From the NCBI GenBank assembly GCA_037137395.1, contig JBAXKK010000046.1, positions 1 through 19,943 on the forward strand: a stretch of 19,943 nt of DNA, read 5' to 3'. Below are positions 1-13,564 of this stretch, piece after piece. How positions within the stretch are numbered: the first letter of the stretch is position 1; each line of letters begins with the position of its first letter. The notes beneath the pieces are model-generated. The model saw only the letters and a program-made list of their open reading frames with translations. It was not told where the DNA came from and searched no databases. Source of the stretch: Elusimicrobiota bacterium (GTDB lineage: Bacteria; Elusimicrobiota; Elusimicrobia; Elusimicrobiales; UBA9959). The translations under genes were made by a program, and so were the position numbers.

Positions 1-362
1 TCGCAAGATAACAATACACCGCCCGCGCCTTAACCGCTTTTCGTGCCTTACCACCGCCGGTAATCGCCTCTTTCTTTGCTCACTCCGGTTATTTCGCACA
101 CCTGCCGCATTATTTCTTCAGACGAGATATGCAATTCCGGCAATTCACCAGCTTCTTTTAATACCGATTCAACAAAATCTCCGCCCCCCAAAATAAAGAA
201 AATCCTCGTAATCCTCCTTTTCCAGGAAGATTGATCTCCGCTCATTTCCACGAGCGATTACATGGTACATATATCCGGCTAAATCTATTCGTGCTTGTCT
301 TGGCATAACAATACTTCACAAAAATTAGAGTTAAATATTCAATATTTCAACAGCGTCCCCTA
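1..362 (-). mobile_element. Internally deleted copy of the RAYT element (one TIR plus fused 5' and 3' transposase remnants); runs off the window edge
   Basis: 1-195 matches the 3' part of the RAYT gene (~5650-5843) and 195-306 matches its 5' part (6397-6508), so ~555 bp including the HUH and catalytic Tyr motifs are missing. The TIR CAATATTTCAACAGCGTCCCCTA ends at 362. Confidence 0.92.
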
Positions 363-691
363 ATTCCCCTAGAATTCCGTGGAAGTGTTCCATCACTAAA
401 GAGATGTATGTATGCCCAGTGCCCGTGTTCACCATCAACTGATATGTACCATCCGCCGCTAAAACCAATCCCTGCGATTGTCCCGTCTTCTACTGGATTG
501 ATGCTCTCCCCTGCGGTCGCAAGATAGTCAACACCCTCATGGTAATCCCACGTGCCACTGAGTACTCGTGGGCCAAAATCTGAATTAATGGACCATGACC
601 AAGGTGGAACAATCGTCTGAGCCACCACATCTGTTAAAAAGATTGGCAGAATGCCGATGACACAAAACAAATGTCTAATTTTTAATCGCAT
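347..691 (-). pseudogene. Truncated secreted M23-family metallopeptidase (N-terminal stub)
   Basis: Signal peptide, then INSDFGPR...HEGVD (HxxxD) and AYIHL. The frame runs into the TIR (…RGIRGRC*) directly after. ATG abuts the upstream stop (TAGATG at 694-689). Confidence 0.8.
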
Positions 692-1741
692 CTATTCCTC
701 AAAACGCTGCTTCAAGTCAATTTCCAAATTCTCGCGCCCAAAGGCAAGTTTCATTTGCCCATTGTCGTTTAATTCAAAAACTGCATATGGTTTTTCTGCC
801 TTCCACCGCTTGCCAGTGGTGAGATCAAAAACAACAAGACGCATCCCCTCGCCCAAATATCCCGCTTTAACCGCGAGAAACTTTCCATTGGGAGATATGT
901 TTATATCTCCCTCGGGGTGGACTTTAACATCCTTATCAGAGTCAGGGAAAGTTAACAACGACCTCCCCTCCCTGTCATATGCATATAAAACTTCTTTGCC
1001 TGGTCCCTCTCCTTTGCTTGTCATGAAAGCAACGGATCCATTATTCGAAACAACCATATCTGGTCGCGGACCGCCAGCGATACTTCCCTGCTCAATTTTT
1101 TTTTGAAACAGCTCTTTCCCAGTATTATTTAAGAGCACAAGTTTTGCTTCTTGTGGCGGTGGCGCATAAGCCCCTTCTCCGTAAGTCTTTACATAATCGC
1201 CGCTCTCCTTGGGATCGTTGATGTTGTGCCGCACCCAGACAAGATGGTCGATAATTAAGCAATACTCTTGATTCTCTGAAATTGTGGCGCTTTTGGAATT
1301 TACTTGATACCCATTCCATTCTTTGCTGATCGTTGCATCCTTGAATTTTTTTGAAGTGGTTTTTTCACCAAGCTCTATGCGTTTAACGATATTGCCATTC
1401 GCAGCAATAAATTTTAATTTTGGTTGTCTAATCTCCTCTACTCTGACTAATTTGTGGTTCTCTTCGTTATACTTCTGCATCAATCCTTTTTCTTTTTTTA
1501 TTTCATCAATGGAGTTGACCCCCAGTTTTCGCAAGGTTTTTTCTTTTACTTGAGTTAATATCCGTTGTTTTTCCTTTCCATTTCGAGACACATATAATTT
1601 CTCTGACTCTTTCCCATAGTCATCAAAAAGAGTTATTTCTTCTTCCTCAAGAACCACTCGCCCTTGAGGGCTTTTTTCTTGACCATGTGCCATTAATGGG
1701 GTCAAGGTAAGTGCCAGCATGATGGTTAAAGTTAATTTCAT
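692..1741 (-). CDS. Secreted protein (349 aa) with beta-propeller-like blades
   Basis: Likely start ATG 1741 (MKLTLTIMLALTLTPLMAHG, signal peptide) after AAGGAAGGGTG. WD40/TolB-like motifs VVSNNGSVAF, ISPNGKFLAV, LVVFDLTTGK. The longer ORF call reads through repeat DNA. Confidence 0.8.
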   Translation of the reverse strand: MKLTLTIMLALTLTPLMAHGQEKSPQGRVVLEEEEITLFDDYGKESEKLYVSRNGKEKQRILTQVKEKTLRKLGVNSIDEIKKEKGLMQKYNEENHKLVRVEEIRQPKLKFIAANGNIVKRIELGEKTTSKKFKDATISKEWNGYQVNSKSATISENQEYCLIIDHLVWVRHNINDPKESGDYVKTYGEGAYAPPPQEAKLVLLNNTGKELFQKKIEQGSIAGGPRPDMVVSNNGSVAFMTSKGEGPGKEVLYAYDREGRSLLTFPDSDKDVKVHPEGDINISPNGKFLAVKAGYLGEGMRLVVFDLTTGKRWKAEKPYAVFELNDNGQMKLAFGRENLEIDLKQRFEE

Positions 1742-1774
1742 AGTTAAGTCACCCTTCCTTATTCTTGTTGTTCG

Positions 1775-1933
1775 GCGAAGCCGGGAGCCAGCCGGGCTTT
1801 GGCGGCTGGCGCAGAGGAGGTGATGAATATGACCGATACTCCTCACCTCGGGGCGAGCGAGCGGAGTGCTTGCCAGCCGCGTTAGCGGCTGGCAAAGGAC
1901 GACGCCGCAAGCGTAAGATGCAGTATACCGCTT
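1775..1933 (-). repeat. GC-rich structured repeat, copy A
   Basis: Reverse complement aligns to 2310-2482. Contains the core GGTATACTGCATCTTACG (1929-1912) and the perfect hairpin TTGCCAGCCGC-GTTA-GCGGCTGGCAA (1870-1895). Confidence 0.88.
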
Positions 1934-2309
1934 GTTTTTCGGCCTTCCCACTTTCGGATACGGCGGGCGTGTCGGGGAAAGCCAGAATGGGTTCCCCTTC
2001 TATTCTTCCTTTGGGGGAGCCACCGGGATTCAGCCTGTTAGTCTTGGCCATGATAATTTTATTTTTCGCCAGAATTTGACCGCTCTGAATCTGCCGGACG
2101 GGCAGCATAAATTTGTTGTTAAAATTAAAGATGTTAATGGGCATGAATCCGCAGAAGCAGATGCCGCAAAAGTTGATTTTATAAGAAATTTCCTTTTTTC
2201 TCTCGTCGTAGCTGTTCATAACAGGATTATCCAAAGTCCTTCCATCAACTCCGTAAAATCTATGACCGCTGGAATATCCACCAGGCTGCATGAGGCCGTC
2301 CTCCTGGCG
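1934..2309 (+). pseudogene. Probable internal fragment of a large secreted protein lying between the inverted repeats
   Basis: Open frame with NLTALNLPDGQHKFVVKIKDVNGHES, resembling an Ig-like strand motif (PDGxHxxxVxxxDxxG). No convincing start codon/RBS and no stop of its own. Confidence 0.4.
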
Positions 2310-2482
2310 AAGCGGTATACCGCATCTTATGCTCGCGGCGTCGCCCTTTGCCCGCCGCTGGCGCGGCTGGCAAGCGCTCCGCCCGCTCGCTCCCGCGCTG
2401 TTGTTGCTCGCCCGGCTCGCGGGGACGGGGAAAAGCACCTCCTGTACGCGTCCCGCCAAAGCGCGGGCCGCTCCCGCTTCGC
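2310..2482 (+). repeat. GC-rich structured repeat, copy B (inverted relative to A)
   Basis: AAGCGGTATACCGCATCTTATGCTCGCGGCGTCG... has about 10 mismatches to copy A over the first ~80 bp (hand count). A variable middle follows, then the shared block CACCTCCT...CCGCCAAAGC...GCTCCC...CTTCGC. Confidence 0.88.
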
Positions 2483-2502
2483 TATCGCTGCGCGTACACC
2501 AA

Positions 2503-2520
2503 GGTATACTGCATCTTACG
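2503..2520 (+). repeat. Third copy of the 18-bp core GGTATACTGCATCTTACG, followed by a different hairpin
   Basis: Identical to the reverse complement of 1912-1929. Followed by GATAG...CTATC (2531-2555) and then the RAYT TIR at 2563. Confidence 0.8.
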
Positions 2521-2562
2521 GGGACCGCACGATAGCCGCCCGCGCTGGCACTATCACGAGAG

Positions 2563-2881
2563 TAGGGGACGGTGTTGAAATATTGCTTATTCAGGCATCA
2601 CAATATTTTCACACAAGTCTTTTCCCCGCTCAATAAGTCTTGAAACTGCCCCGCAAGTCAGCCCTAACTCCCTCGTTAGCTCTACTCCTCGCATTTTGGT
2701 CTTTTCTCTCGCAAGATAACAATACACCGCCCGCGCCTTAACCGCTTTTCGTGCCTTACCACCACCTGTAATCTCCTCTTTGCTCACTCCGGTTATTTCG
2801 CACACCTGCCGCATTATTTCTTCCGGCGAGATATGCAATTGCGGCAATTCACCAGCTTCTTTCAATGCCGACTCAACAAAA
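2563..2881 (-). mobile_element. Truncated copy of the RAYT element (TIR plus 3' end of the transposase)
   Basis: TIR TAGGGGACGGTGTTGAAATATTG at 2563-2585. 2587-2880 encodes the RAYT C-terminal HTH region (KEAGELPQLH...ELGLTCGAVSRLIERGKDL). Cut off where the miniature element begins. Confidence 0.92.
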
Positions 2882-2892
2882 TAGGGGAGTCA

Positions 2893-3088
2893 TAGGGGAC
2901 GTTGTTGACTTGTCGACTAACTATTTTTCTTGTGCACATAACAGCCTCCGCTCCTTCTCCACAAGCCGCGATATCCCGCTCCGGGTTAACCCAAGCTGAC
3001 TATTCTTCCCAGATTACTCTGAACCTGTAAAACAAAATTCTCACAATCCTCTTTCTTAACTTAGTCAATTAATCAACAACGTCCCCTA
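2893..3088. mobile_element. Miniature non-autonomous RAYT-derived element (MITE-like), copy 1
   Basis: 16-bp perfect TIRs TAGGGGACGTTGTTGA / TCAACAACGTCCCCTA. The minus-strand interior reads QLGLTRSGISRLVEKERRLL, similar to the RAYT C-terminus. Repeated at 4167-4361. Confidence 0.9.
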
Positions 3089-3095
3089 TTGCACC

Positions 3096-3194
3096 CTACA
3101 ACCCATCGGCGACCACTTCAGAGCGGGTTTTCGCATAAAGATTCCCGCTTAAAATGGCAAGGCAAATAAATGATAACAAGAATTTAGTGCGCAT
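3096..3194 (-). pseudogene. 32-aa stub of a secreted protein (MRTKFLLSFICLAILSGNLYAKTRSEVVADGL), possibly NlpC/P60-like
   Basis: Hand-translated, below the ORF-track cutoff. Starts 9 bp after the upstream stop and has a clear signal peptide. Its TAG lies in the partial TIR duplication. TRSEVV resembles the first helix of some NlpC/P60 domains (weak evidence). Confidence 0.6.
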
Positions 3195-3203
3195 ATGGTT
3201 TTG

Positions 3204-4106
3204 CTATTTTTTTAAAATAATTTTTTTTACGCTTATTCCTTCCCAATAACCTTCAAAATCCCACTTCTCCTGATCTTCACTAGGCTTTGTTGAATACAAC
3301 CCCAATAAATAGAGATTCGCTTGTGTAGAAATAATCATTGTTTCCATATTTTTAAGGATTTCAAAGAGCATGTTGCCATTCGGACCATACGCCCGAATTA
3401 CCCTGCCGTTTGAAAACCATTTATGTTTGCTTTGATCCTCAAAAGCAAAGCTAGCATCAAACCCGTCATAGGTTAAGCGTTCACTGACTGTATTATTGCG
3501 TTTCTGGCTTTCAGCTTTAAACTTGCTATCGGCTTTGAGTTTTTCCTTTATTTCCGCAATCCTGAAAGAACGGGACATTTTATTCCTGACTTTTGTTTCT
3601 TCATCAGCCGCAGCAACCTTTGAAAAACGCCCTTTACTGAATTTATGGAGGGTTTCACTCCTTTTGGTGCCGCTGCGCTCATCTTTTACGGCATAAATTG
3701 CACCATCAATATACTTAATTTCGCGGATTGAGGTTGCAGGATACTCAAGTCCGTTATTTCTTTTAATATCCTCATTGCTGGCAAGCTTATAAGAGTCAAT
3801 AGGAATTACACCAAGGAATTTCCCGTTCTTATCGTAATGCTGGACACGATTATTAAGGTGATCGAGAATATATATCTCCTCATTATCATCCACGACCATA
3901 CTTCTTGGCCAATCCAAATCACCTTCCCACATTCTATACTTATATTCTCCAGGTTTCTCTCCCCATTTACCAACAATTAAAACCTGCTCTTCATAGGCTT
4001 TCCCTTTTTGTGCAGGAGAAGACACTCCTTGTTCTTCCGTCGCATCAAGAGATGAAGCCACACAGGCCATCAACATCACAAGTATAAGCAGTTTAGAGAA
4101 TTTCAT
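3204..4106 (-). CDS. Secreted NHL-repeat-like protein (300 aa)
   Basis: ATG 4106 with RBS AAGGAG and signal peptide MKFSKLLILVMLMACVASSLDA. NHL-like motif WPRSMVVDDNEEIYILDHLNNRVQHYDKNGKFL. Confidence 0.82.
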   Translation of the reverse strand: MKFSKLLILVMLMACVASSLDATEEQGVSSPAQKGKAYEEQVLIVGKWGEKPGEYKYRMWEGDLDWPRSMVVDDNEEIYILDHLNNRVQHYDKNGKFLGVIPIDSYKLASNEDIKRNNGLEYPATSIREIKYIDGAIYAVKDERSGTKRSETLHKFSKGRFSKVAAADEETKVRNKMSRSFRIAEIKEKLKADSKFKAESQKRNNTVSERLTYDGFDASFAFEDQSKHKWFSNGRVIRAYGPNGNMLFEILKNMETMIISTQANLYLLGLYSTKPSEDQEKWDFEGYWEGISVKKIILKK

Positions 4107-4166
4107 TTTATGCTCCTTACTATCCCATTTTGGAACCATTAAAATATGAGCCTATAAGCCAAGTAA

Positions 4167-4361
4167 TGGGGTACGCTGTTGACCAGTTGACTGACTATTT
4201 TTCCTATGGCATAACAGCTTCCGCCCCTTCTCCACACGTCGCAATATGCCACTCCGGGGTAACCCAAGTTGATTATTCTTTCCAGATTACTCTGAACCTG
4301 TAAAACAAAATTCTCATAATCCTCTTTCTTAACTTAGTCAATTAATCAACAACGTCCCCTA
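4167..4361. mobile_element. Miniature non-autonomous RAYT-derived element (MITE-like), copy 2
   Basis: Direct repeat of 2893-3088. Left TIR degenerate (TGGGGTACGCTGTTGA), right TIR TCAACAACGTCCCCTA at 4346-4361. The right half is nearly identical to copy 1. Confidence 0.9.
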
Positions 4362-4559
4362 TTGCACTCCACTGTAATCAATAGCCTTGTGAAAGTCATA
4401 CTTTAGAGAACCATTCTGTAAGATTACACGTGGCCCGAAATCCGATGATATTGAAAATCCTGGGTCGCTAGCTGTGATATGAGCGAATAAAACAGAAGCG
4501 TTGCTCAGAAAGACCATAAGCAAGAACAAAAGAAGTTGGAATTTCGTTTTATTATTCAT
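4359..4559 (-). pseudogene. Truncated secreted M23-family metallopeptidase (N-terminal stub)
   Basis: Signal peptide, then ISSDFGPR...DFHKAIDY (HxxxD), homologous to 347-691. The stop codon is the TAG of the TIR. Starts 5 bp after the upstream stop. Confidence 0.8.
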
Positions 4560-4564
4560 AGATA

Positions 4565-5473
4565 TTAATCTTCTTCTTTCTGAACGCCAGTGCTCTTGAA
4601 GTCATTCATGTCAGGCACCCATTCGTATTCTTCCCATATTTGACTGCCGACATACCCTTCCGCACCACCATGAAATTTAACTTTCCGCCCCCCGCCCCCA
4701 TCTTTAACAAATTTCCTTCCCAATAATTTCCCCTCATCAGTAATCCCTTTTAGCTTAATCCCCTTACCCCATTCAGCATAAAAAACCTTCTTATTTGCGA
4801 TATCGACTACCGTAAGCAAATTCTTTGAAGAATAGTTTCCACGCTCTTGCAAAGCGAGCCATTTCCCAAGCGGGGAGACCATTGCTATTCTCCATCCGCC
4901 TCGCCTTGACATTGTTGAAAATAGTGTTTCCCATTTATCATTCATCACCGCTAAATAGGTCGTTTTTAATCGTCTGTCTTGCTTAAGTGGCTCGGTAGTC
5001 GATTGCCCTGCGACATAGTACTTTTCAAACTCCACATCTTCGAAACCTTCGTCAATAAGAATAATGACGTTTCCGTTATCGGATATTTTCTCAACATAAG
5101 AACGACCGCCCAATAGTTTTTGGGATATTTCCGTGCCAGCCTCGTCATACCATGTTATAATTGTCCCGCTAGAAAAACGTATTTTATAAGGGTCCACTTC
5201 ATTTACATCGCGCGTCTCGTCTTGAACCACGGTAAATTTAGTGTCTTTGCTACGCAGAGCTTTCATTTTTTGCCTTATCGTTTTACCGCTTTCGGTGAAT
5301 TCTCGGTTCTCAAGGCGGATTTCCTTTTTTATTTTGGCTGCTTTATCTTTGAAGACAATTTTATCGGCAGATTTTTCAGCTTTTCCATCTTTGCCTATTT
5401 CCTGCGCCGCAAATGCCGCTCCTGTCAGGCAAAATATCGCTGCCGTTATAAAAAAACCCTTCAGTGTTTTCAT
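4565..5473 (-). CDS. Secreted protein (302 aa), beta-propeller-like, distant homologue of 692-1741
   Basis: Signal peptide MKTLKGFFITAAIFCLTGAAFA. Motifs KISDNGNVII, VSPLGKWLAL, LTVVDIANKK and ITDEGKL are collinear with those of 692-1741. Confidence 0.8.
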   Translation of the reverse strand: MKTLKGFFITAAIFCLTGAAFAAQEIGKDGKAEKSADKIVFKDKAAKIKKEIRLENREFTESGKTIRQKMKALRSKDTKFTVVQDETRDVNEVDPYKIRFSSGTIITWYDEAGTEISQKLLGGRSYVEKISDNGNVIILIDEGFEDVEFEKYYVAGQSTTEPLKQDRRLKTTYLAVMNDKWETLFSTMSRRGGWRIAMVSPLGKWLALQERGNYSSKNLLTVVDIANKKVFYAEWGKGIKLKGITDEGKLLGRKFVKDGGGGRKVKFHGGAEGYVGSQIWEEYEWVPDMNDFKSTGVQKEED

Positions 5474-5477
5474 GGTA

Positions 5478-5527
5478 GGCATAGGGGACGCTGTTGAAAT
5501 ATGGCATAGGGGACGCTGTTGAAATAT
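5478..5527 (+). repeat. Exact 25-bp tandem duplication of the RAYT TIR and its flank
   Basis: GGCATAGGGGACGCTGTTGAAATAT occurs at 5478-5502 and 5503-5527. Confidence 0.97.
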
Positions 5528-6564
5528 TGCTTATTCAAGCACCACAATATCTCCAGACAAGTCTTTTCCACGCTCAATAAGTCTTGAAACTGCCCCGCAA
5601 GTCAGCCCTAACTCCCTCGCGAGTTCTACTCCTAGAATTTTGGTCTTTTCTTTCACAAGATAACAATACACCGCTCGCGCCTTAACCACTTTTCGTGCCT
5701 TACCACCGCCGATAATCGCCTCTTTGCTCACTCCCGTCATTTCGCACACCTGCCGCATTATTTCTTCAGGCAAGATATGCAATTCCGGCAATTCACCAGC
5801 TTCTTTCAATACCGACTCAACAAAATCCCCGCACCCTAAAATACGGTCATCAAATATTTCTCTTCCCCCGCTTCTCCTGCAACTTAAAACATTTCCAAGC
5901 CCGCCCATACTCTTAATCAATCCACCACCGGAATATTCTCCGCCTTTATATTTATCCTGTCGCTCTTTTAGGAAGGCTTCATATCCTTGCATGGCTTTTT
6001 GCTCTTTCCCACCAAAATGGCCTAAGACATAATCTCTTTCCAAAAATCCGGTTTTACACATTCCGATCAAAGCACCGTGCCCACACCATCTATATTTTCC
6101 CAATTCCTTAAAATCATTAACCAGTTTTGCTCTCAACGGGTTCAGATGAATATACGCTACGAGCTCCCTAAAATATTCTTCCTCGTCGCATATTATTCCT
6201 TTATACCGATTCTGGAACAAATGTCCGCAACGCTTGTGCCTTATATTAAACCCAATAGCATAGCCGGTCATTAACCGGCTCATAAGTTCAGCCAAAGGTT
6301 TTTTGCCGCGCAATATCAACAGGTGGAAATGATTAGGAATAAGACACCAAGCCAGACATTTCCCTCCAGTTTTATCCAGGGCAATTTTAAATCGTGAAAG
6401 AAAATCCTCGTAATCCTCCTTTTCCAGAAAGATTGATCTCCGCTCATTTCCACGAGCGATTACATGGTACATATATCCGGCTAAATCTATTCGTGCTTGT
6501 CTTGGCATACCAATATTTTATAAAAATTAGCGTTCAATATTCAATATTTCAACAACGTCCCCTA
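5507..6564 (-). mobile_element. Intact TIR-bounded RAYT element (1058 bp)
   Basis: TAGGGGACGCTGTTGAAATATTG (5507-5529) and CAATATTTCAACAACGTCCCCTA (6542-6564) are 22/23 inverted repeats enclosing only the transposase gene. No target-site duplication seen. Confidence 0.9.
5531..6508 (-). CDS. rayT: REP-associated tyrosine transposase (HUH Y1, RAYT) with C-terminal DnaA_C-like HTH
   Basis: MPRQAR...YHVIARGNERRSIF, HUH motif CLIPNHFHLL, HLFQNRYK, catalytic YIHLNPLRA, YRWCGH, and a C-terminal helical HTH-like region. Confidence 0.95.
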   Translation of the reverse strand: MPRQARIDLAGYMYHVIARGNERRSIFLEKEDYEDFLSRFKIALDKTGGKCLAWCLIPNHFHLLILRGKKPLAELMSRLMTGYAIGFNIRHKRCGHLFQNRYKGIICDEEEYFRELVAYIHLNPLRAKLVNDFKELGKYRWCGHGALIGMCKTGFLERDYVLGHFGGKEQKAMQGYEAFLKERQDKYKGGEYSGGGLIKSMGGLGNVLSCRRSGGREIFDDRILGCGDFVESVLKEAGELPELHILPEEIMRQVCEMTGVSKEAIIGGGKARKVVKARAVYCYLVKEKTKILGVELARELGLTCGAVSRLIERGKDLSGDIVVLE

Positions 6565-6587
6565 TTATCCAGTCCCCTATTATCCTA

Positions 6588-7436
6588 TTATCCAGGCTCG
6601 TAATTCTTTATTATTTCCAACGCACTACGATGCTTGAATCCCAAATTTTCCAACTTCTTCAGTAGTTCTTTCCGGCCCAGACTTTCGTCTTTCATGGCCT
6701 CATCAAACTGCATTTTTGTTTCGGAGGATAGAGTTGTGTTGCTGCCGTCATAACCAAAAAACAGTGATTTCCCCTCTTCCAGACTTTTCTGCAGCGTTTT
6801 GGAATAGAACTCCGAATTCCGTCGCAGATTATTCTCTGCGATCAGCTTTATACCACTGTCGGAGCCCACGCCGGAATATTTCCGGCATGCACCCGCACTG
6901 AAACGCACTCCGGGCTCTCTTGCATTTCCTCTCCAGTGAACCAAAAGGACGCCTTTTGGAGGAACCCCGGCTTTATCCCATTTTGCGCTTATCACCGTGC
7001 CGGTAGACCTTTCAAACAGCGCCAGTATCTCGCCGGCAGCCACTGTATAATTGCCGGTTTTCCTGCGTTCGCAGAATATCTTGTTGGCTTCTTCCAGCAA
7101 ATCTCCGGCTCGCGAGGAAATAATGTCTTTTTCCGTTGTACCAGGCCCTACAGGCACGCCGTTTATTGAGGTCTTTCCATTCTCAACCTGAACCTTATAC
7201 GGAGGCTTTATAATATGCCCGTAAACCACAACAAGCCCGGTAGTTATGCCGGTGGTCTGGACTACAGGCTTTATGTCCGTCTTGCCAGGCTTGCCGCCTT
7301 TCCGTACGGCTCTTTTAAAATGCCTGGGGAACTGCTGTCCGGCCAGGCTCGCAGTAGACTTTACAACGCCATATTCGCCGGCCGGACAATTCCCGCACGT
7401 GAACAAAACAACGAATGCCGTAATAAATAACTTCAT
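6588..7436 (-). CDS. Secreted hypothetical protein (282 aa)
   Basis: ATG 7436 preceded by GGAG, with a hydrophobic N-terminus MKLFITAFVVLFTCGNCPA. The stop lies in the duplicated TIR-flank sequence, so the C-terminus may be clipped. Confidence 0.72.
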   Translation of the reverse strand: MKLFITAFVVLFTCGNCPAGEYGVVKSTASLAGQQFPRHFKRAVRKGGKPGKTDIKPVVQTTGITTGLVVVYGHIIKPPYKVQVENGKTSINGVPVGPGTTEKDIISSRAGDLLEEANKIFCERRKTGNYTVAAGEILALFERSTGTVISAKWDKAGVPPKGVLLVHWRGNAREPGVRFSAGACRKYSGVGSDSGIKLIAENNLRRNSEFYSKTLQKSLEEGKSLFFGYDGSNTTLSSETKMQFDEAMKDESLGRKELLKKLENLGFKHRSALEIIKNYEPG

Positions 7437-7659
7437 TTTTTTGCTCCAGGGTTTAATGTGAATTTGCAATTGGAAATACGCGCCATTCATTATGGCGCCA
7501 GTTCATCCTGACTTTCCCGCCTGGTTTCCCTGCGGTCACATATCAAAACGTGCTGCGCAAAACCGGCGCAACAATAAATTTTTAATTTTGATCCTTACCA
7601 GAGGTCCCCCATTAAACTAATACGGAAAAACTTCCCGCCACCTATATAGTGTCCAACCC

Positions 7660-8292
7660 CTACACTATGTACGCCGGATCGTTATTTTTAAGACCGGCGG
7701 CGTTGGCTTCTTCCACATCCAGATGAAGCTCCAGCGCGAATTTATCCGACACGCGGCACAGGACCCGCTCATAAACGGTCTCCCTTTCGGTACCGGCGCC
7801 GCAGCGCACCCGCACCTCGGTCCCATCCTTTATTTTCATCAGCTCGGCGTCCTTGGGATGAAAATGGATATGCCTCTTGGAGAGTATCACGCCTTTTTTT
7901 ATCTCCACGGAACCTTTGGGCCCGATTATTTTGATACCGGGCGTGTTCTCAAGTTTGCCCGAATCCCGTATCGGGGGTTCAATTCCGAGCGCCCTGGCGT
8001 CGCCCAGGCTGACCTCGATCTGCGTATAGGTCCGGTAAGGGCCGATCATCCGAACATTCTTAAGCGTCCCTTTAGGGCCTTCCACGCTGACAAGCTCGTT
8101 GCAGGCAAAAAAGCCGGGCTGGCGGAGCTGCCTGTATAGGACCGGCTCGGCGTCCGCGCCAAAGACCGCCTTAAAATCCTCTTTCGTAAAATGCACATGC
8201 CTGTTTGAAATACCCACGGGCACCGGCGTCTTTGAACGCTCGGCGCGGAGTTTAAGTTCTTCCACTATTTCCCTGGTTAATCCTTCTTCCAT
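7660..8292 (-). CDS. pduL: PduL-type phosphate acyltransferase (phosphotransacylase)
   Basis: VPVGISNRHVH, LRQPGFFA, TQIEVSLGDARALG..PIRDSG, SKRHIH, LELHLDVEEANAAGL. Confidence 0.95.
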   Translation of the reverse strand: MEEGLTREIVEELKLRAERSKTPVPVGISNRHVHFTKEDFKAVFGADAEPVLYRQLRQPGFFACNELVSVEGPKGTLKNVRMIGPYRTYTQIEVSLGDARALGIEPPIRDSGKLENTPGIKIIGPKGSVEIKKGVILSKRHIHFHPKDAELMKIKDGTEVRVRCGAGTERETVYERVLCRVSDKFALELHLDVEEANAAGLKNNDPAYIV

Positions 8293-8320
8293 GTGATTTG
8301 TCCTCGATGTTGTTTATATT

Positions 8321-9091
8321 TTAAAGCACTTCCTCGAAATGGATGACCCGCAGGAACTTATCGGCTTTGAGGCTTTCCCCTCCGACCAGAGCTCCGTCTA
8401 TGTCAGGCTTAGCCATGAGCGTGTCGATATTGTCGGCTTTCACCGAGCCGCCGTAAAGGATGCGGACTCCGGCCGCGTAATCCCCGCCGTAGAGCCTCTC
8501 CATCTGCTTCCTGACGAAGGTATGAGCGTCCTGAGCCTGCTCGGGCGTCGCGGTCTTGCCGGTGCCGATAGCCCACACCGGCTCATAAGCTATAACCACC
8601 CGCGCTATCTCCCCAACCTTAAGGCCGGCGAAAGCTCCGGCGAGCTGCGTTTCCAGCACGCGGTAGGTCTGCTGCGCTTCCCTCTCTTCAAGGGTTTCGC
8701 CGATGCACAGGACGGGCATGATATTATGCGCTAAAGCGGCTTTCATTTTTTTATTTACCACTTCGTCGCTCTCGCCGAATATCTTGCGGCGCTCGGAGTG
8801 TCCTATAATCGCGTGGGTGCAGCCGGCGTCCAGGATCTGGGCTGGCGACACCGCGCCTGTGAAAGCGCCTTTCTCTTCCCAATGCACATCCTGCGATGAA
8901 AGTATAATCTTTGAACCGGACAGGGCTTCGCGCACCGCCGCCAGGTTTGTGTAGGACGGGGCTATCAGCACCTCGTGGCGCAGATCGGGATTAAGACCTT
9001 TTTTGAGGGCCAAGGCCAGCTCACCCGCTTCTTTGGCGTTAAGGTGCATCTTCCAATTACCTGCTATCATGGGTATCCTGTTTTTGTTCAT
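8321..9091 (-). CDS. tpiA: Triosephosphate isomerase
   Basis: AGNWKMH, IIGHSERR, IAYEPVWAIGTG, LYGGSVK, GALVGGESL. Confidence 0.99.
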   Translation of the reverse strand: MNKNRIPMIAGNWKMHLNAKEAGELALALKKGLNPDLRHEVLIAPSYTNLAAVREALSGSKIILSSQDVHWEEKGAFTGAVSPAQILDAGCTHAIIGHSERRKIFGESDEVVNKKMKAALAHNIMPVLCIGETLEEREAQQTYRVLETQLAGAFAGLKVGEIARVVIAYEPVWAIGTGKTATPEQAQDAHTFVRKQMERLYGGDYAAGVRILYGGSVKADNIDTLMAKPDIDGALVGGESLKADKFLRVIHFEEVL

Positions 9092-9110
9092 ATGGTATAT
9101 TTTCCTATTT

Positions 9111-9659
9111 TTATATCATCTCCCTCAAGAGTTCTTTTCTAGGTTGGGGAATTACGACTTTTTCCACCAACAGGCCTTTTTTGGCCGCGACGGCGGCTCC
9201 GGCCGCGACAGCTGTTTCAGCCGCGGCCACGCTGCCGGTCATCGTCACGAAGGCCTTGCCGCCCAGCGCCATTGCCAGACGTATCTCTACAAGCTTGACC
9301 GAGCCGGCTTTTACGGCGGCGTCGGCGGCCTCTATCAGGGCCGAAACCGAGAACGATTCTATCACGCCCAGCGCTTCCAGCTCTTCCACCACGACTGTCC
9401 CCTCTATCGCTGGGAAAACTTCCGGGTGTATATTAGCAATAACAAAACTATCAACCAGCGCGTGGGCGGCCTTATTGGCGCCCGCTTCCACGGCGGAGTT
9501 CACGGCCCCCACTTCGCCCGATATCAATATTATGTACTTGCCGGGACAGACTGATCTGGAAAGCAGCAGCTTCACGTCCGAGTTTTTAAGCATAGCGTCA
9601 GCGGCCTCAAAGCCCCTGGCTATGCTGGAAAGCTCCACTCCGCCGATAGCGTTGTTCAT
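9111..9659 (-). CDS. pduT: Tandem-domain bacterial microcompartment shell protein (BMC-T), PduT-like
   Basis: AIGGVELSSIARG..AADAMLK, SVCPGKY (Fe-S ligand Cys as in PduT), and a second BMC domain ALGVIE...AADAAVKA...ALGGKAFVTMTG. Confidence 0.9.
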   Translation of the reverse strand: MNNAIGGVELSSIARGFEAADAMLKNSDVKLLLSRSVCPGKYIILISGEVGAVNSAVEAGANKAAHALVDSFVIANIHPEVFPAIEGTVVVEELEALGVIESFSVSALIEAADAAVKAGSVKLVEIRLAMALGGKAFVTMTGSVAAAETAVAAGAAVAAKKGLLVEKVVIPQPRKELLREMI

Positions 9660-9663
9660 AAGT

Positions 9664-11010
9664 TTAACCTGCGATTATCTCAATATACTTTTCGTTCACC
9701 TTTAAAACTTGGCCGTCGATACTGGCATGCACCGGCGCGCCCATTTTATCCGCCGGCACCGAGCCTACCACACAGCCTTTCTTCACGCGGTCGCCAACGC
9801 TCACCGCGGGAGAGCAGGGGACGCCGATGTGCTGGCTGAGCGCTATCCTGACGCGCTCGGGTTTATAATTGTGTTCAAGATAGGGGGCGTCGGTATTATA
9901 ATCCGCCAAACCGAGGCGTTTAATAAGTTTGGAAACCGGCACCTTGCGTTCCTCACGCACCGGATGGGGCACGGAGGACCGACCATTATTAAGGGGTGAA
10001 TTTTTAAATCCGACTTTAATCTCCCGCAAATCCGCCTTGGACGCCGCGCACACCTCGCGCGGGTTAAGACCCTCGGGACAGGCGTAAAGGCTGCAGAGCG
10101 AACACTCGCAGCAGAGGAGAGCGTATTCGCTGTGCAATTTCCGCCCTCCGCCGGCGAACATGAGCGAACGCATGGCGCGATGCGGCTGAATGGTATGCCC
10201 CAGAAGATAACGCGGACAGAGCTCGGTGCAAAAAGAGCACTGGTCGCAAACGGACCGGCCTATCCTGGAAAAACCTGGTCTGGATTGGGCTTTTTTGACT
10301 ATCAGGGAATGGTCCCTGGGCAGAACGATTATCCCCCCTGAAGACTTGTTGATCAGCGTGCCAAAATCGGTTATAACGCGTCCCATCATGGGGCCGCCGT
10401 CTATGCCCGCGGCATACCGTATCTTAAGGCCGCCGGCTATTTCCACGGCTTCGGCGTAAGTGATGCCGACCGGCACCTTGATAGTGCAGGGCCTCTTCAC
10501 GGCGCCGGCGACGGTAATATACTTATCGGTGACAGGAGTTTTGTCGGAGAGGGCGGAGTTATAAAGCGTTTCGACATTGCATACCACGCAGCCGATATCT
10601 ATGGGGAGGCCGCCCATGGGGACCACGCGGCCGGTGATATCATAGACCAGGCACTGCTCGTCTCCGGCGGGGTAATAATCTCCCAGCGGTGCAACGGAGA
10701 TATTCTTCCGGGTTTCGGCGATACCATTAAGTCGTTTTATCAGATGCTCGTGTTTTTTCTTTATCCCTATAATGCCGGCGGACGCGCCGACAGAGCGCAT
10801 CATAAGTTCCAGACCGTCAAAGATTTTTTCCGGAAAAAGCTCAAAAAGCTTCTGATCTTTTTTAAGCAGAGGCTCGCATTCCGCGGCGTTCACCAAAACA
10901 TATTCCGCCCGGCTTTGGGCCTTGATATAAGTCGGGAAGCCGGCACCGCCGGCGCCGACTACGCCTGCATCTTTTAGCCTGGCTGAAAATTCTGGGGTAA
11001 AATCGTTCAT
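9664..11010 (-). CDS. pduS: PduS-like flavin/Fe-S oxidoreductase (RnfC-related, SLBB domain)
   Basis: GVVGAGGAGFPT, NAAECEPLL, YPAGDEQ, GGPMMG, two CxxCxxCxxxCP clusters, PVHASIDG; adjacent to pduT. Confidence 0.9.
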   Translation of the reverse strand: MNDFTPEFSARLKDAGVVGAGGAGFPTYIKAQSRAEYVLVNAAECEPLLKKDQKLFELFPEKIFDGLELMMRSVGASAGIIGIKKKHEHLIKRLNGIAETRKNISVAPLGDYYPAGDEQCLVYDITGRVVPMGGLPIDIGCVVCNVETLYNSALSDKTPVTDKYITVAGAVKRPCTIKVPVGITYAEAVEIAGGLKIRYAAGIDGGPMMGRVITDFGTLINKSSGGIIVLPRDHSLIVKKAQSRPGFSRIGRSVCDQCSFCTELCPRYLLGHTIQPHRAMRSLMFAGGGRKLHSEYALLCCECSLCSLYACPEGLNPREVCAASKADLREIKVGFKNSPLNNGRSSVPHPVREERKVPVSKLIKRLGLADYNTDAPYLEHNYKPERVRIALSQHIGVPCSPAVSVGDRVKKGCVVGSVPADKMGAPVHASIDGQVLKVNEKYIEIIAG

Positions 11011-11069
11011 GTTCTGTAAAGCAGCGGACTAAATGACCGAAGGAACGGCAATCTCAAAAATATTCCTCT

Positions 11070-12296
11070 TTATTTCGCAACCAGTCTTTTCTTTACGGCG
11101 ACAGCCAGACGCTTTATGCCTTCCGCGATCTCGTCCGGGGTCGCGTAAGAAAAGTTCAGGCGCATCGTGTTTTTACCGGAACCGTCGCAGTGAAAAGCCG
11201 AGCCGATAACATAAGCCACGTTCTCTTTAATGGCGTCCTCAAACATATCGTCGGCGCTCATGCTCTCAGGGAGCTTTACCCAGAGAAAAAGCCCCCCTTC
11301 GGGTTTGGTCCAGGTGACGCCCTCCGGCATGTGCTCCGCAAGGGCGTTGAGCATGGTGTCTTTCTTCGTCTTATAGACCTTATTAACCCGGGCTATATGC
11401 TTTTCGAAATATCCTGACCGCAGGAACTCCGCGGCGATGAGCTGGTTCAGGCTGGAGGAGCAGAGATCCAGCGACTGCTTAAGTATCTCCATCTTCTTGA
11501 TTATCTGCTCATGCGCCACTATAACTCCGATCCTGAGCCCGGGCGCGAAGGTTTTGGAGAATGTAAACAGCGATATAATGTTGTCCGTATTCCTGGTCTC
11601 TTTGTCCAGACGGTAGATCATTTTGGGAGCGACACCTTCAAACCGAACCTGGCGGTAAGGGGAGTCTTCTATAACTGCGATATTGTATTTTTCAGAAAGT
11701 TCTATAACCTTTCTTCTTCTTTCTTCGGAGAGGGTCACGCCGCTCGGATTCTGAAAATCCGGAACCAGGTACAGAAATTTATAATGCTCGTCCTGGGTCC
11801 GCAGCCAGTTAAGCCGCTCTTCCAGATTGTCCGTCATTATGCCGTCTTCATCCATTTTCACGCCCACAAAATCAGCGCCGTAGGACTTAAACACCTGCAG
11901 GCCGCCCATATAACTGGGCATTTCAACCAGCACGGGGTCTGACGCGTCAATAAACAGGCGGCCCACAATATCAAGCGCCTGCTGTGACGCGGTAGTGACG
12001 ATAATATTTGCGGGCTTAACGGTCAGGCCTTCATGCTTCTGAAGAAACTTAATAAATTCCTCTTTAAACTCGGGCAGGCCGTCGGTGGGGCCGTACTGAA
12101 GGGCGACCCTGCCTTGTTTTGCCATGATATTTTTTACCGCGTCGGCTACAAAATCATAGGGGAACAGTTCGGGGTCCGGAAGACCGCCGGCGAAAGAGAT
12201 TATACCGGGCTTGTTGGTTATTTTCAGGAGTTCCCTGATCACGGAAGCTTTGGTGCGTCTGGGAGCGGCAGCGATGTTCTTTGCTATATCAATCAT
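11070..12296 (-). CDS. PLP-dependent aminotransferase, class I/II (LysN / 2-aminoadipate-aromatic type)
   Basis: IISFAGGLP, ALQYGPT, PDFQNPSG, IEDSPY, TFSKTFAPGLRIG (PLP lysine), EGGLFLW, MRLNFS. Confidence 0.93.
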   Translation of the reverse strand: MIDIAKNIAAAPRRTKASVIRELLKITNKPGIISFAGGLPDPELFPYDFVADAVKNIMAKQGRVALQYGPTDGLPEFKEEFIKFLQKHEGLTVKPANIIVTTASQQALDIVGRLFIDASDPVLVEMPSYMGGLQVFKSYGADFVGVKMDEDGIMTDNLEERLNWLRTQDEHYKFLYLVPDFQNPSGVTLSEERRRKVIELSEKYNIAVIEDSPYRQVRFEGVAPKMIYRLDKETRNTDNIISLFTFSKTFAPGLRIGVIVAHEQIIKKMEILKQSLDLCSSSLNQLIAAEFLRSGYFEKHIARVNKVYKTKKDTMLNALAEHMPEGVTWTKPEGGLFLWVKLPESMSADDMFEDAIKENVAYVIGSAFHCDGSGKNTMRLNFSYATPDEIAEGIKRLAVAVKKRLVAK

Positions 12297-12469
12297 GACG
12301 ACCTCCGGCAGATTACTTGACGGCTTATGGATAATCTACTCTATTAAGATATCTATTTCAAGAAGAAAATTATTAAGCGGCACGGGTCCGCCGGTCATTA
12401 ACAGGCGTATGGAAAATAAACGCTGTTTTTTTCGTCATAAAGCGGATAAGCGCATCTCTTCCGCCCCCC

Positions 12470-12498
12470 TTGACTTTCACGCTATCGCCCCTTATACT
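12470..12498 (+). promoter_or_regulatory. Sigma70-type promoter
   Basis: TTGACT (12470-12475), 17-bp spacer, TATACT (12493-12498), then AGGAGG and ATG 12517. Confidence 0.75.
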
Positions 12499-12516
12499 CT
12501 TAGTATAGGAGGGCGT

Positions 12517-13260
12517 ATGCGGACAACTATCCTTGTGTTTATACTGGCGGGAGTTTTTCACAACCCGGCTAACGCGCAGATAAACTTTGATTCCTGGTCA
12601 GATTTCAAGCTGACCGATAGTATTGCCGCGCAGGATCTGGATATCCCCACCCCTGAACCTGAAATAGCGCCCAAAGATTCTTCCGCTTCCTGCGAAGGCT
12701 ACCCGCTCACAATGGAACTGCGCGATCGCTCCGTAACGCTTCCGGCCACGGGCGTATGGACTCTTGAGTCCCATCTGGCCACTGACGAAGACTCTTTCGC
12801 AAATGGCCGCGCCTTCCCCCGCACTATACGCGAGAACATTTCCGAGCACATCAGCAACGCCTGCACCATGCTTGCCAAGGTTGCCTCCGGCGCCAACTGT
12901 GGCGAAGTTTATGACACAGAGTATGCCAAAGAGTGGACGCCTCCCGAAAATGGAAAAGCCGGACAAGGCTCCGTGGGGAATGTGAGGCCTTCAAAAGCGG
13001 AGGAGATGTGGATATTTAATATGATGTGGGCGGGCAATTCCATACCTAAAGCTGGCACCAAATTCCTCGCCACCTACAACGACATAAGCGTGGTGGTGGT
13101 AGGCGGCTACGAACGCGGGCCCTCATCGGAGCACTTCCTGGGCGGCTTCCAGAGAGAAGTTTTGTGGGCCCTTGGCGCCGAGGAGGACTCAAGCGAAATA
13201 ACCCTCTCCGCGCTTATAGATCAGACGCTCCCCCCCGGCCCCGTCAACTGCCCGAAGTAA
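12517..13260 (+). CDS. Secreted protein (247 aa) with a possible divergent double-psi beta-barrel (RlpA-like) C-terminus
   Basis: RBS AGGAGG, signal peptide MRTTILVFILAGVFHNPANA, Pro-rich linker, four Cys. GTKFLATY...SVVVVGGYERGP...REVLWALG resembles the DPBB pattern GT.v.v...svvv.v.DRGP...AA..LG. Confidence 0.8.
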   Translation: MRTTILVFILAGVFHNPANAQINFDSWSDFKLTDSIAAQDLDIPTPEPEIAPKDSSASCEGYPLTMELRDRSVTLPATGVWTLESHLATDEDSFANGRAFPRTIRENISEHISNACTMLAKVASGANCGEVYDTEYAKEWTPPENGKAGQGSVGNVRPSKAEEMWIFNMMWAGNSIPKAGTKFLATYNDISVVVVGGYERGPSSEHFLGGFQREVLWALGAEEDSSEITLSALIDQTLPPGPVNCPK

Positions 13261-13270
13261 AACCGCAGGA

Positions 13271-13299
13271 TTGACAACTTCGCGACAATGTATCAGAAT
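13271..13299 (+). promoter_or_regulatory. Possible sigma70-type promoter for the YtxH gene
   Basis: TTGACA (13271-13276), 17 bp, CAGAAT (13294-13299). Confidence 0.45.
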
Positions 13300-13345
13300 T
13301 GATGTATCGGGATTTTGCAATGCTAATTTAGATACAGGAGGCATC

Positions 13346-13564
13346 ATGTCAGAAAACAGAAGCGGAGAGATAGTATCGGCTTTCGTGATAGGCGGCCTTA
13401 TCGGCGCCGCCCTGGGCATCCTTTTCGCCCCGGCAAAGGGCAAAGATACCCGCGAGAAGATCAATGAATGGATTGACGACAATACTGAAAAAGCCAAGGA
13501 AAAACTGGAAAAGCTGGAAGAAGAGATAATAAAGAGAAAAGACCAGCTCCTTAAACACAGCTAA
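13346..13564 (+). CDS. YtxH-like protein
   Basis: RBS AGGAGG; FVIGGLIGAALGILFAPAKGKDTREKI followed by a coiled coil. Confidence 0.92.
   Translation: MSENRSGEIVSAFVIGGLIGAALGILFAPAKGKDTREKINEWIDDNTEKAKEKLEKLEEEIIKRKDQLLKHS

Follow-up and report, generated by a model that had tools for sequence, protein, structure and literature searches.

A TIRtron-Punctuated Array of Orphan Partner Genes and Cut Enzyme Heads in an Uncultured Elusimicrobiota Bacterium

Introduction

How does a row of intact genes for secreted proteins, three of them followed by the cut-off start of a second gene, come to lie between the ends of transposable elements? The question arises at the start of contig JBAXKK010000046.1 (here C46) from an uncultured freshwater bacterium of the Elusimicrobiota (assembly GCA_037137395.1, 2.70 Mb, here G000), whose first 19,943 nucleotides (nt) we analyzed and refer to as the window. 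Here one full TIRtron, a TIRYT transposase gene between terminal inverted repeats (TIRs), and four deletion derivatives (E1 to E4 and a fragment), all co-oriented, separate four secreted genes (A to D), the partners of giant proteins found elsewhere. This TIRtron-punctuated array of orphan partners is real. As to its origin, we incline, with some reserve, to the reading that it is an array of partners and cut enzyme heads whose units are trimmed and exchanged by TIRYT at element ends, the partners being predicted periplasmic immunity proteins.

Results

Structure of the Array

The features of the array, in minus-strand order and with coordinates in the window, are the following.

6588..7436, minus strand: gene A, 282-aa secreted orphan partner; its family precedes large PP.IP-headed proteins
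6549..6564, minus strand: left TIR core of E1, with an imperfect 8-bp direct repeat inward and a partial duplication just outside
5531..6508, minus strand: TIRYT transposase, intact, 325 aa; Y1_Tnp (HFH at 60-62, Tyr119) plus Bac_DnaA_C helix-turn-helix (HTH)
5482..5522, plus strand: right TIR of E1, a perfect 25-nt tandem duplication
4565..5473, minus strand: gene B, 302-aa secreted partner
4359..4559, minus strand: stub B, 66 aa, signal peptide and M23 HxxxD; its stop is the TIR's own TAG
4167..4361, minus strand: E2, 195 nt, internally deleted derivative of a second TIRtron
3204..4106, minus strand: gene C, secreted partner (300 aa) for giants with NlpC/P60 heads, like an NHL-type beta-propeller
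3096..3194, minus strand: stub C, 32 aa, signal peptide and first helix (AKTR..VV) of an NlpC/P60 head
2893..3088, minus strand: E3, 196-nt derivative, 88% identical to E2
2563..2888, minus strand: 3' 320 nt of an E1-type element including the right TIR, 92% identical to E1
1742..2562, no strand: 821-nt spacer preceding gene D, in which nested inverted arms enclose part of an M23-giant gene body (1939-2140) in inverted orientation
692..1741, minus strand: gene D, 349-aa secreted partner; homologues precede M23-headed giants
347..691, minus strand: stub D, 114 aa, N-terminal half of an M23 head; reads into the TIR and stops inside it
1..362, minus strand: E4, a copy of E1 with an internal deletion, continuing past the contig end

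The order is therefore A, E1, B with its stub, E2, C with its stub, E3 with the E1-type 3' part, the spacer, D with its stub, and E4. An earlier note on this DNA had described three units of an intact signal-peptide gene, a truncated second gene and a TIR, together with a fourth secreted gene ending at a TIR, all co-oriented with the transposase. We confirm all three units; the fourth gene, A, ends 23 nt before its TIR without a stub, and the full element and the four derivatives do share one orientation. The heads are cut at the left end of an element after 66 (B), 32 (C) and about 110 (D) codons. Stubs B and D carry the M23 HxxxD motif, as the note had seen, and lack the distal HxH (residues 187-209 of full-length relatives). 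Stub C has no catalytic residue, stops 7 nt before the TIR and is of NlpC/P60 type by homology only (53% to a full-length head). The note's picture of TIRs as separators stood as far as the left-end cuts are concerned, but the separators are whole two-ended elements and gene D is preceded by the spacer.

Searches of G000 by tblastn and blastn returned no remainder of the cut giant genes, and nothing scored when stub D was compared with the longer proteins of a large protein collection. Gene A has no Pfam match and no confirmed relative among the genome contigs. The predicted fold of gene C (pLDDT 92) is NHL-type and propeller-like, with its best structural match (Z 11.2, root-mean-square deviation 4.4, 190 aligned) among NHL propellers; an alignment profile search with this gene was swamped by NHL-repeat proteins. 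For gene D there are weak beta-propeller leads and an unusable single-sequence model (pLDDT 42), and the Atlas structure matches for genes A and D, all below 0.9, are leads only.

The spacer arrangement recurs (73% nt identity) upstream of an intact locus, G068:C6 (L068). There, a 248-bp part of the M23 giant recurs in inverted orientation, at 100% identity (597-844 and 2725-2972), upstream of the partner and brackets partner and head, possibly the footprint of an inversion or head swap. The window spacer keeps an upstream arm of this type along with nested palindromic arms, which among five genomes searched occur at this locus only.

The Element and Its Ends

By the features tested (an HUH and Tyr core, Bac_DnaA_C and flanking TIRs), the window element is a member of the TIRtron/TIRYT family. 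The transposase scored 39 bits against PF01797 (cut-off 23) and 35 bits against PF08299 (cut-off 31.5). TIRtrons, described by Di Nocera et al. in 2013, hold a TIRYT transposase between TIRs of consensus GGGGWSAS in place of repetitive extragenic palindromic (REP) hairpins (PMC3733652), and TnpA-Y1 subclass 2.1.2 is defined by a C-terminal Bac_DnaA_C/HTH (Quentin et al., 2018, PMC6006769). The earlier note had labeled the enzyme a RAYT; with its Bac_DnaA_C tail and TIRs it is a TIRYT and fits subclass 2.1.2.

Each end consists of GGGGACG and, on its inner side, an imperfect direct repeat of roughly 8 bp that differs in sequence between element types; the HTH of the transposase probably reads the two 8-bp inner repeats. 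With GGGGACG at 6564 and 5522, these TIRs deviate by a single base from the published GGGGWSAS, to which the GGGGTCAG type of relatives conforms exactly. Short tandem duplications occur at several window ends, and in relatives at 12 of 90 ends versus a 4% background. E2 and E3 retain the first and last codons of the second TIRtron in the same orientation.

The 16-mer TIR core, TAGGGGACGYTGTTGA, has nine matches with at most two mismatches, all within 347-6564 (0.01 expected), and every one of its seven exact copies in the genome falls in this interval. A looser pattern found three extra sites of TAGGGGACGYTGTTGA type and two of GGGGTCAG type on other contigs of G000. TIR-type sites elsewhere in this genome, on C8 near 8800, C13 near 38830 and C75 near 8120, lie beside small accessory genes that, from a reading of open reading frames (ORFs), presumably include nucleotidyltransferase/HEPN-like pairs. 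A promoter and terminator scan did no better than shuffled sequences, and an Rfam search returned no family.

Assembly Support

Contigs of run X1 bridge 278-2656, 3065-4311, 4338-5600 and 6480-8205 with zero differences and a flat depth of 10-13, and every stub-TIR and TIR-gene junction lies within a single one of them. Metagenome contig L307 matches window positions 4270-13436 at 99.9%; both X1 and L307 are possibly from the source sample. The whole array is not contained in any one record, and for the unit order across the repeats at about 2660-3065 we depend on the assembly. Genes B and C are hardly or not covered in runs X3 and X5, and in one X5 contig of depth 2.1 an E2/E3-type end is joined to stub D at 371; we regard both as hints only. 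A loose X1 contig end, considered as a continuation beyond the left end of the window, was rejected, its motif not being present in G000.

Partner Families Precede Giant Headed Proteins

Elsewhere, members of each cargo family lie immediately before the gene for a giant secreted protein whose N-terminal head varies; the head is of M23 type for B and D, NlpC/P60 for C and an unnamed type, PP.IP, for A. The earlier note had asked whether such homologues have full-length M23 or NlpC/P60 genes as their neighbors; this held for the B, C and D families, but not for A. In 300 genomes, a single homologue of gene B was found; it immediately precedes an M23-headed giant of 3776 aa, the start of which shares 50% identity with stub B. 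In the D family, two of 10 loci precede M23-headed giants (4591 and >2147 aa). A coupled signal-peptide gene with an NlpC/P60-type head follows the partner at 18 of 22 C-family loci, with the catalytic GxDC present in 16 of 18 pairs tested and a head profile that matches Spr/MepS (E 3.5e-6). The PP.IP head was found in 25 of the 29 A-family loci with a coupled gene. Dropped before these counts were 7 of 29 C-search loci (generic NHL proteins), G029 from the D family (a weak match that stops inside), L331 (no ORF called) and, from the A tally, L307 and L308. The closest partner homologues are in Elusimicrobiota records.

The giants contain Ig-like, NHL and TIG repeats and show weak Por_Secre_tail matches, with a PorV-like gene downstream. 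The PorV family match was over its cut-off; the C-terminal sorting domain TIGR04183 reached 21 bits, under its cut-off of 23. Heads are N-terminal and partners upstream, and the family of the partner tracks the type of head and not the body of the giant. Intact orphan partners persist in many genomes. The head-specific linkage, the signal peptides and this persistence as orphans lead us to infer that the partners act in immunity. A partner with a partial head, followed by a partner with a giant, occurs free of TIRs in G170, G026, G017, G121 and G080.

Several related layouts were seen in passing. Metagenome contigs from outside the Elusimicrobiaceae-like lineages (L316-L353) have dense tandem partner/giant pairs and GGGGTCAG-type TIRtrons, with heads of the PP.IP, M23, NlpC/P60 and alpha/beta-hydrolase-like types. 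In G170 (L123, 14726-15127), the resident NlpC/P60 giant of 4145 aa seems to be broken close to its start, next to another partner with a 509-aa head, possibly by phase variation or decay. On L021 (6615-7347), a TIR is directly followed by an Rhs-tip-like ORF with a PLA2 family match and a small membrane protein, the layout of a toxin-tip/immunity cassette at a TIR. A partner and a 164-aa M23 stub lie between direct repeats on G016:C6 (L066, 10206-11662), with a motif in the repeats that we take to be dif-like; orphan units of this kind would thus have another way to arise.

Recurrence of the Unit and Differing Cargo

The unit of a partner, with or without a stub, followed by a TIR and in some cases a Y1 gene, turns up again in other members of the Elusimicrobiota and on unrelated metagenome contigs, with three TIR/transposase types.

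L133: C and a 43-aa stub, with a TIR dimer upstream
L297: C and 284 aa
L027: C, without a stub
L135: D and 45 aa
L141: D
L316/L317: A and 52 aa
L322: A and 353 aa

The gene cut in L316 is 139 aa in L321, and a relative in L352 exceeds 664 aa. Among loci with at least 1 kb of downstream sequence, a co-oriented Y1 gene starts within 1.1 kb downstream at three of 16 C loci and four of 28 A loci (three distinct, one with a transposase fragment only). A TIR directly follows the gene at two of nine D loci. The rough chance of Y1 adjacency is about 0.1%, at five Y1 genes per 2.8 Mb (range 0-14 matches), and the tallies are far above it.

A comparison of the locus between close relatives, one of the checks suggested in the earlier note, showed different cargo at the same junction. 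Contig L308 (93% nt identity) has the same succession of pduL, gene A and TIRtron; homology then ends at the right TIR and gives way to unrelated cargo, followed by another TIR and the start of a transposase.

Distribution of TIRs in the Family

The TIR was found in 71 of 80 genomes of the family, in up to 73 copies (control matches, at most three per genome). The earlier note had called for a test of TIR enrichment next to such gene pairs; the TIRs are not specific to them: 45 of 59 sites, drawn from two genomes (the first 30 sites listed for each), are short intergenic dimers among ordinary genes.

Cassette Arrays at rpsJ in a Sister Genus

Seven genomes of genus g4 have arrays of 25-75 kb that start right after rpsJ (G071:C43 with L225, L226 and L241, G070:C13, G087:C49, G093:C3, G065:C20, G029:C15 and G079:C76); the one in G071 extends 46 kb up to rplC, inside the S10 operon. 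Also listed as arrays are G067:C55, G079:C68, G085:C83 and G028:C112. The separator is a TIR with a GC hairpin and a T-run, the same form as the left end of full TIRtrons, although many separators keep the hairpin only. Across the seven genomes there are 48 forward and 11 reverse TIRs, with 9-31 hairpin separators per array at a median spacing of 0.9-1.7 kb, and the intact TIRs are somewhat nearer rpsJ (p 0.03). Of the shared cassettes, the distal order is kept in one pair of arrays (rho 0.77) and less or not in others; the cargo is heterogeneous.

In the five array genomes tested, none had an IntI over the TIGR02249 cut-off and all five had Y1_Tnp in trans; no Y1 transposase was found inside the rpsJ arrays. 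XerC/D-like genes are present in array genomes. No array of this type was found in G000, in whose assembly rpsJ itself was not found. Near position 13000 of its contig C3, rplC is preceded by pilus-type genes, the S10 operon being split in this family.

The Island and Its Far Side

The island boundary lies at 7437..7659 (no strand): homology to G001 is lost at 7655, 5 nt beyond the stop codon of pduL. In all three relatives mapped (G001, at 91% nt identity, G002 and G004), pduL is directly beside BMC-H; the array has been inserted into a microcompartment operon. Window positions 7660-12296 hold one half of that operon (pduL, tpiA, a shell protein, a PduS-like gene and an aminotransferase), parted from the other half by the island. 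The other half is on contig C66 of G000, whose positions 1-6940 (L277) carry a giant open frame, truncated where the contig begins but still at least 1991 aa long, and a PorV-family gene that scored over its cut-off. This giant has TIG and Big_13 repeats and a head without a Pfam match, whose H..ED...H motif we take to be zinc phospholipase C/S1-P1-like. Since the ends of C46 and C66 are correctly oriented for joining, the array probably forms the orphan part, lying upstream, of a giant-effector locus that was imported, and we infer a join of the two contigs across the assembly gap that would set the array upstream of the resident giant and PorV gene.

Discussion

Origin of the Array

The evidence that an HUH element collects genes at these loci in the manner of an integron is credible, and the transposon ends probably keep genes predicted to protect against the enzymes of rivals. 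The proposed target of nicking by TIRYT is the GGGGAC core in single-stranded DNA. If one element inserts a short way into a giant gene and another upstream of its partner, the two would define a unit of 1-2 kb, with the nick at the left-end core setting its 3' boundary. The unit could then be moved, or joined end-to-end at another TIR, the enzyme body being left behind and the partner kept. Such a process would be general, as the heterogeneous cargo elsewhere suggests, with partner modules as one enriched cargo. The capture and trimming that the earlier note had envisaged is consistent with the left-end cuts, the distant recurrence and the rpsJ arrays, but arrays of partners with truncated heads occur without TIRs too; and its view that the enzyme is discarded and the partner kept agrees with the cut heads of B, C and D, but a limit on cassette size could make stubs short instead. 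A wider proposal is possible, if tentative: that TIRYT is an integrase-free analogue of an integron, using the left end as recombination site with the enzyme in trans, and building both the rpsJ arrays, of superintegron size, and orphan-immunity stockpiles for an N-terminally polymorphic giant-effector system, like that of type IX secretion (T9SS), common to Elusimicrobiota and other uncultured lineages.

A number of observations weigh against trimming and exchange by TIRYT. As most TIR copies are intergenic dimers, the element is not dedicated to effector loci; by ORF-list reading, none of the 59 sampled TIR sites has a partner gene beside it, and only one of 20 transposase neighborhoods mapped held a homologue of genes A to D. 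Islands attract elements, which may raise the recurrence tallies, and these are not independent, since the compared genomes are related. TIR-free arrays of partners and truncated heads exist in several genomes, with six closed ORFs of 116-509 aa without a TIR versus two cut at a TIR in the C family, and five D orphans lack a TIR. The window separators are two-ended elements, whereas the rpsJ arrays have single left ends, and the join of C46 and C66 is not assembled. As to immunity, the PP.IP head, with no Pfam match, is not a recognized wall hydrolase; the fold-search matches listed for gene C, a generic propeller, include no known immunity protein; and the co-divergence of partners and heads (rho 0.82) is expected from linkage alone.

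It is feasible that an imported multi-effector island simply decayed, in place or in its donor, through ordinary TIRtron insertions and adjacent deletions that removed the giant bodies, with no mobilization of cassettes and with partners surviving by selection or chance. We judge this unlikely. TIR-free loci with several tandem partner and giant pairs do exist (L131, L142), TIRtrons mostly act as dispersed insertion elements, and E2-E4 are deletion derivatives; however, none of three relatives has a multi-effector locus at this site, the cargo of L308 differs right after the same element, and co-oriented left-end arrays with reshuffled content occur in seven genomes. It is less probable still that the element moves units in which the partners serve the giants as chaperones or as helpers in secretion, the stubs being short from a unit size of 1-2 kb and the orphans mere passengers. 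The fold of gene C and the spacing in the rpsJ arrays, which matches the unit size in the window, would fit helpers, the immunity role of the partners being a prediction, and a partner placed upstream reverses the usual toxin-immunity order given in the available text of PMC3482391. Helpers would not be expected to follow the head and ignore the body, nor to remain intact as orphans in many genomes, nor to make up four of the four cargo genes in the window.

That another recombinase, or homologous recombination, builds the arrays while TIRs hitch-hike with a preference for gene ends seems to us very improbable. The G016:C6 unit between direct repeats, the XerC/D-like genes of array genomes and the many hairpin-only separators speak for it, but the hairpin belongs to TIRtron left ends and the cuts in the window fall exactly at TIRs. 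The chance of a repeat-induced misassembly, a doubt the earlier note had itself raised, is negligible: the array lies at a contig end of a metagenome-assembled genome with a contamination estimate of 7.7% and is not spanned by one record, but the X1 contigs contain all of its junctions without a difference and L307 agrees over 9.2 kb. We favor trimming and exchange of partner units by TIRYT.

Significance

The 2018 classification, in its available text, leaves the role of subclass 2.1 open (PMC6006769). The loci described here give a domesticated RAYT/TIRYT a concrete candidate role, the capture and exchange of cassettes at a defined short site. If true, gene libraries like those of integrons would have a second enzymatic origin, one that searches based on IntI and attC do not see, and the enzyme might become a tool for single-strand recombination. 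The cargo further brings to light a polymorphic effector system arranged in mirror image (N-terminal heads of M23, NlpC/P60 and other types, an upstream partner, and PorV), and native partner-enzyme pairs become available for assay. The rpsJ arrays deserve a study of their own.

Comparison With Known Systems

In the literature searched we found no description of TIRYT-bounded cassettes or of the giant-effector family; subscription journals were outside its coverage, and the supplements of PMC3733652 and PMC6006769 may list flanking cargo. The known TIRtron/TIRYT elements share with ours a Y1 HUH enzyme with a Bac_DnaA_C tail, TIRs of GGGG-A-C type and dispersed TIR dimers in the host family, but the available text of those papers describes no cargo capture, truncation or cassette arrays, whereas here left ends punctuate cargo.

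The rAID-1/polyimmunity loci are alike in having co-oriented orphan partner genes with repeats between them and a recombination enzyme (10.1101/471110 and PMC3482391, available text). Their enzyme is XerD-like and ours an HUH transposase: the array's only recombination gene is the Y1 transposase, and the 5' XerD-like gene of rAID-1 has no counterpart there. Enzyme stubs, predicted immunity and the link to a resident giant further set our array apart. Polymorphic toxin loci and Rhs/CDI orphan cassettes likewise combine a variable enzymatic module with a cognate partner and keep orphans beside the full-length gene; going by the available text (PMC3482391), their toxin is C-terminal and their immunity gene downstream, while here the head is N-terminal and the partner upstream. 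Compared with Rhs/CDI orphan arrays the layout is a mirror image, with orphans upstream, a T9SS-like C-terminal tail and a PorV gene.

The rpsJ arrays resemble integrons and superintegrons in their polarized cassettes of 1-2 kb, with one repeated site each and variable content; polarized variable content was seen in those arrays, and in the window only via the comparison with L308. Unlike in integrons, the sites are TIRtron left ends with a terminator-like hairpin and the transposase gene lies in trans. No IntI was found among the window ORFs inside 1-7655, G000 as a whole not having been searched for IntI. Since its recombinase differs, the array falls outside both the rAID-1 and the integron classes. 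HUH enzymes that move adjacent DNA and gene fragments are familiar from ISCR/IS91 and Helitrons; in contrast to these, the array described here has an enzyme of the Y1 TnpA-REP type, symmetric TIRs, no helicase and tandem multi-cassette arrays.

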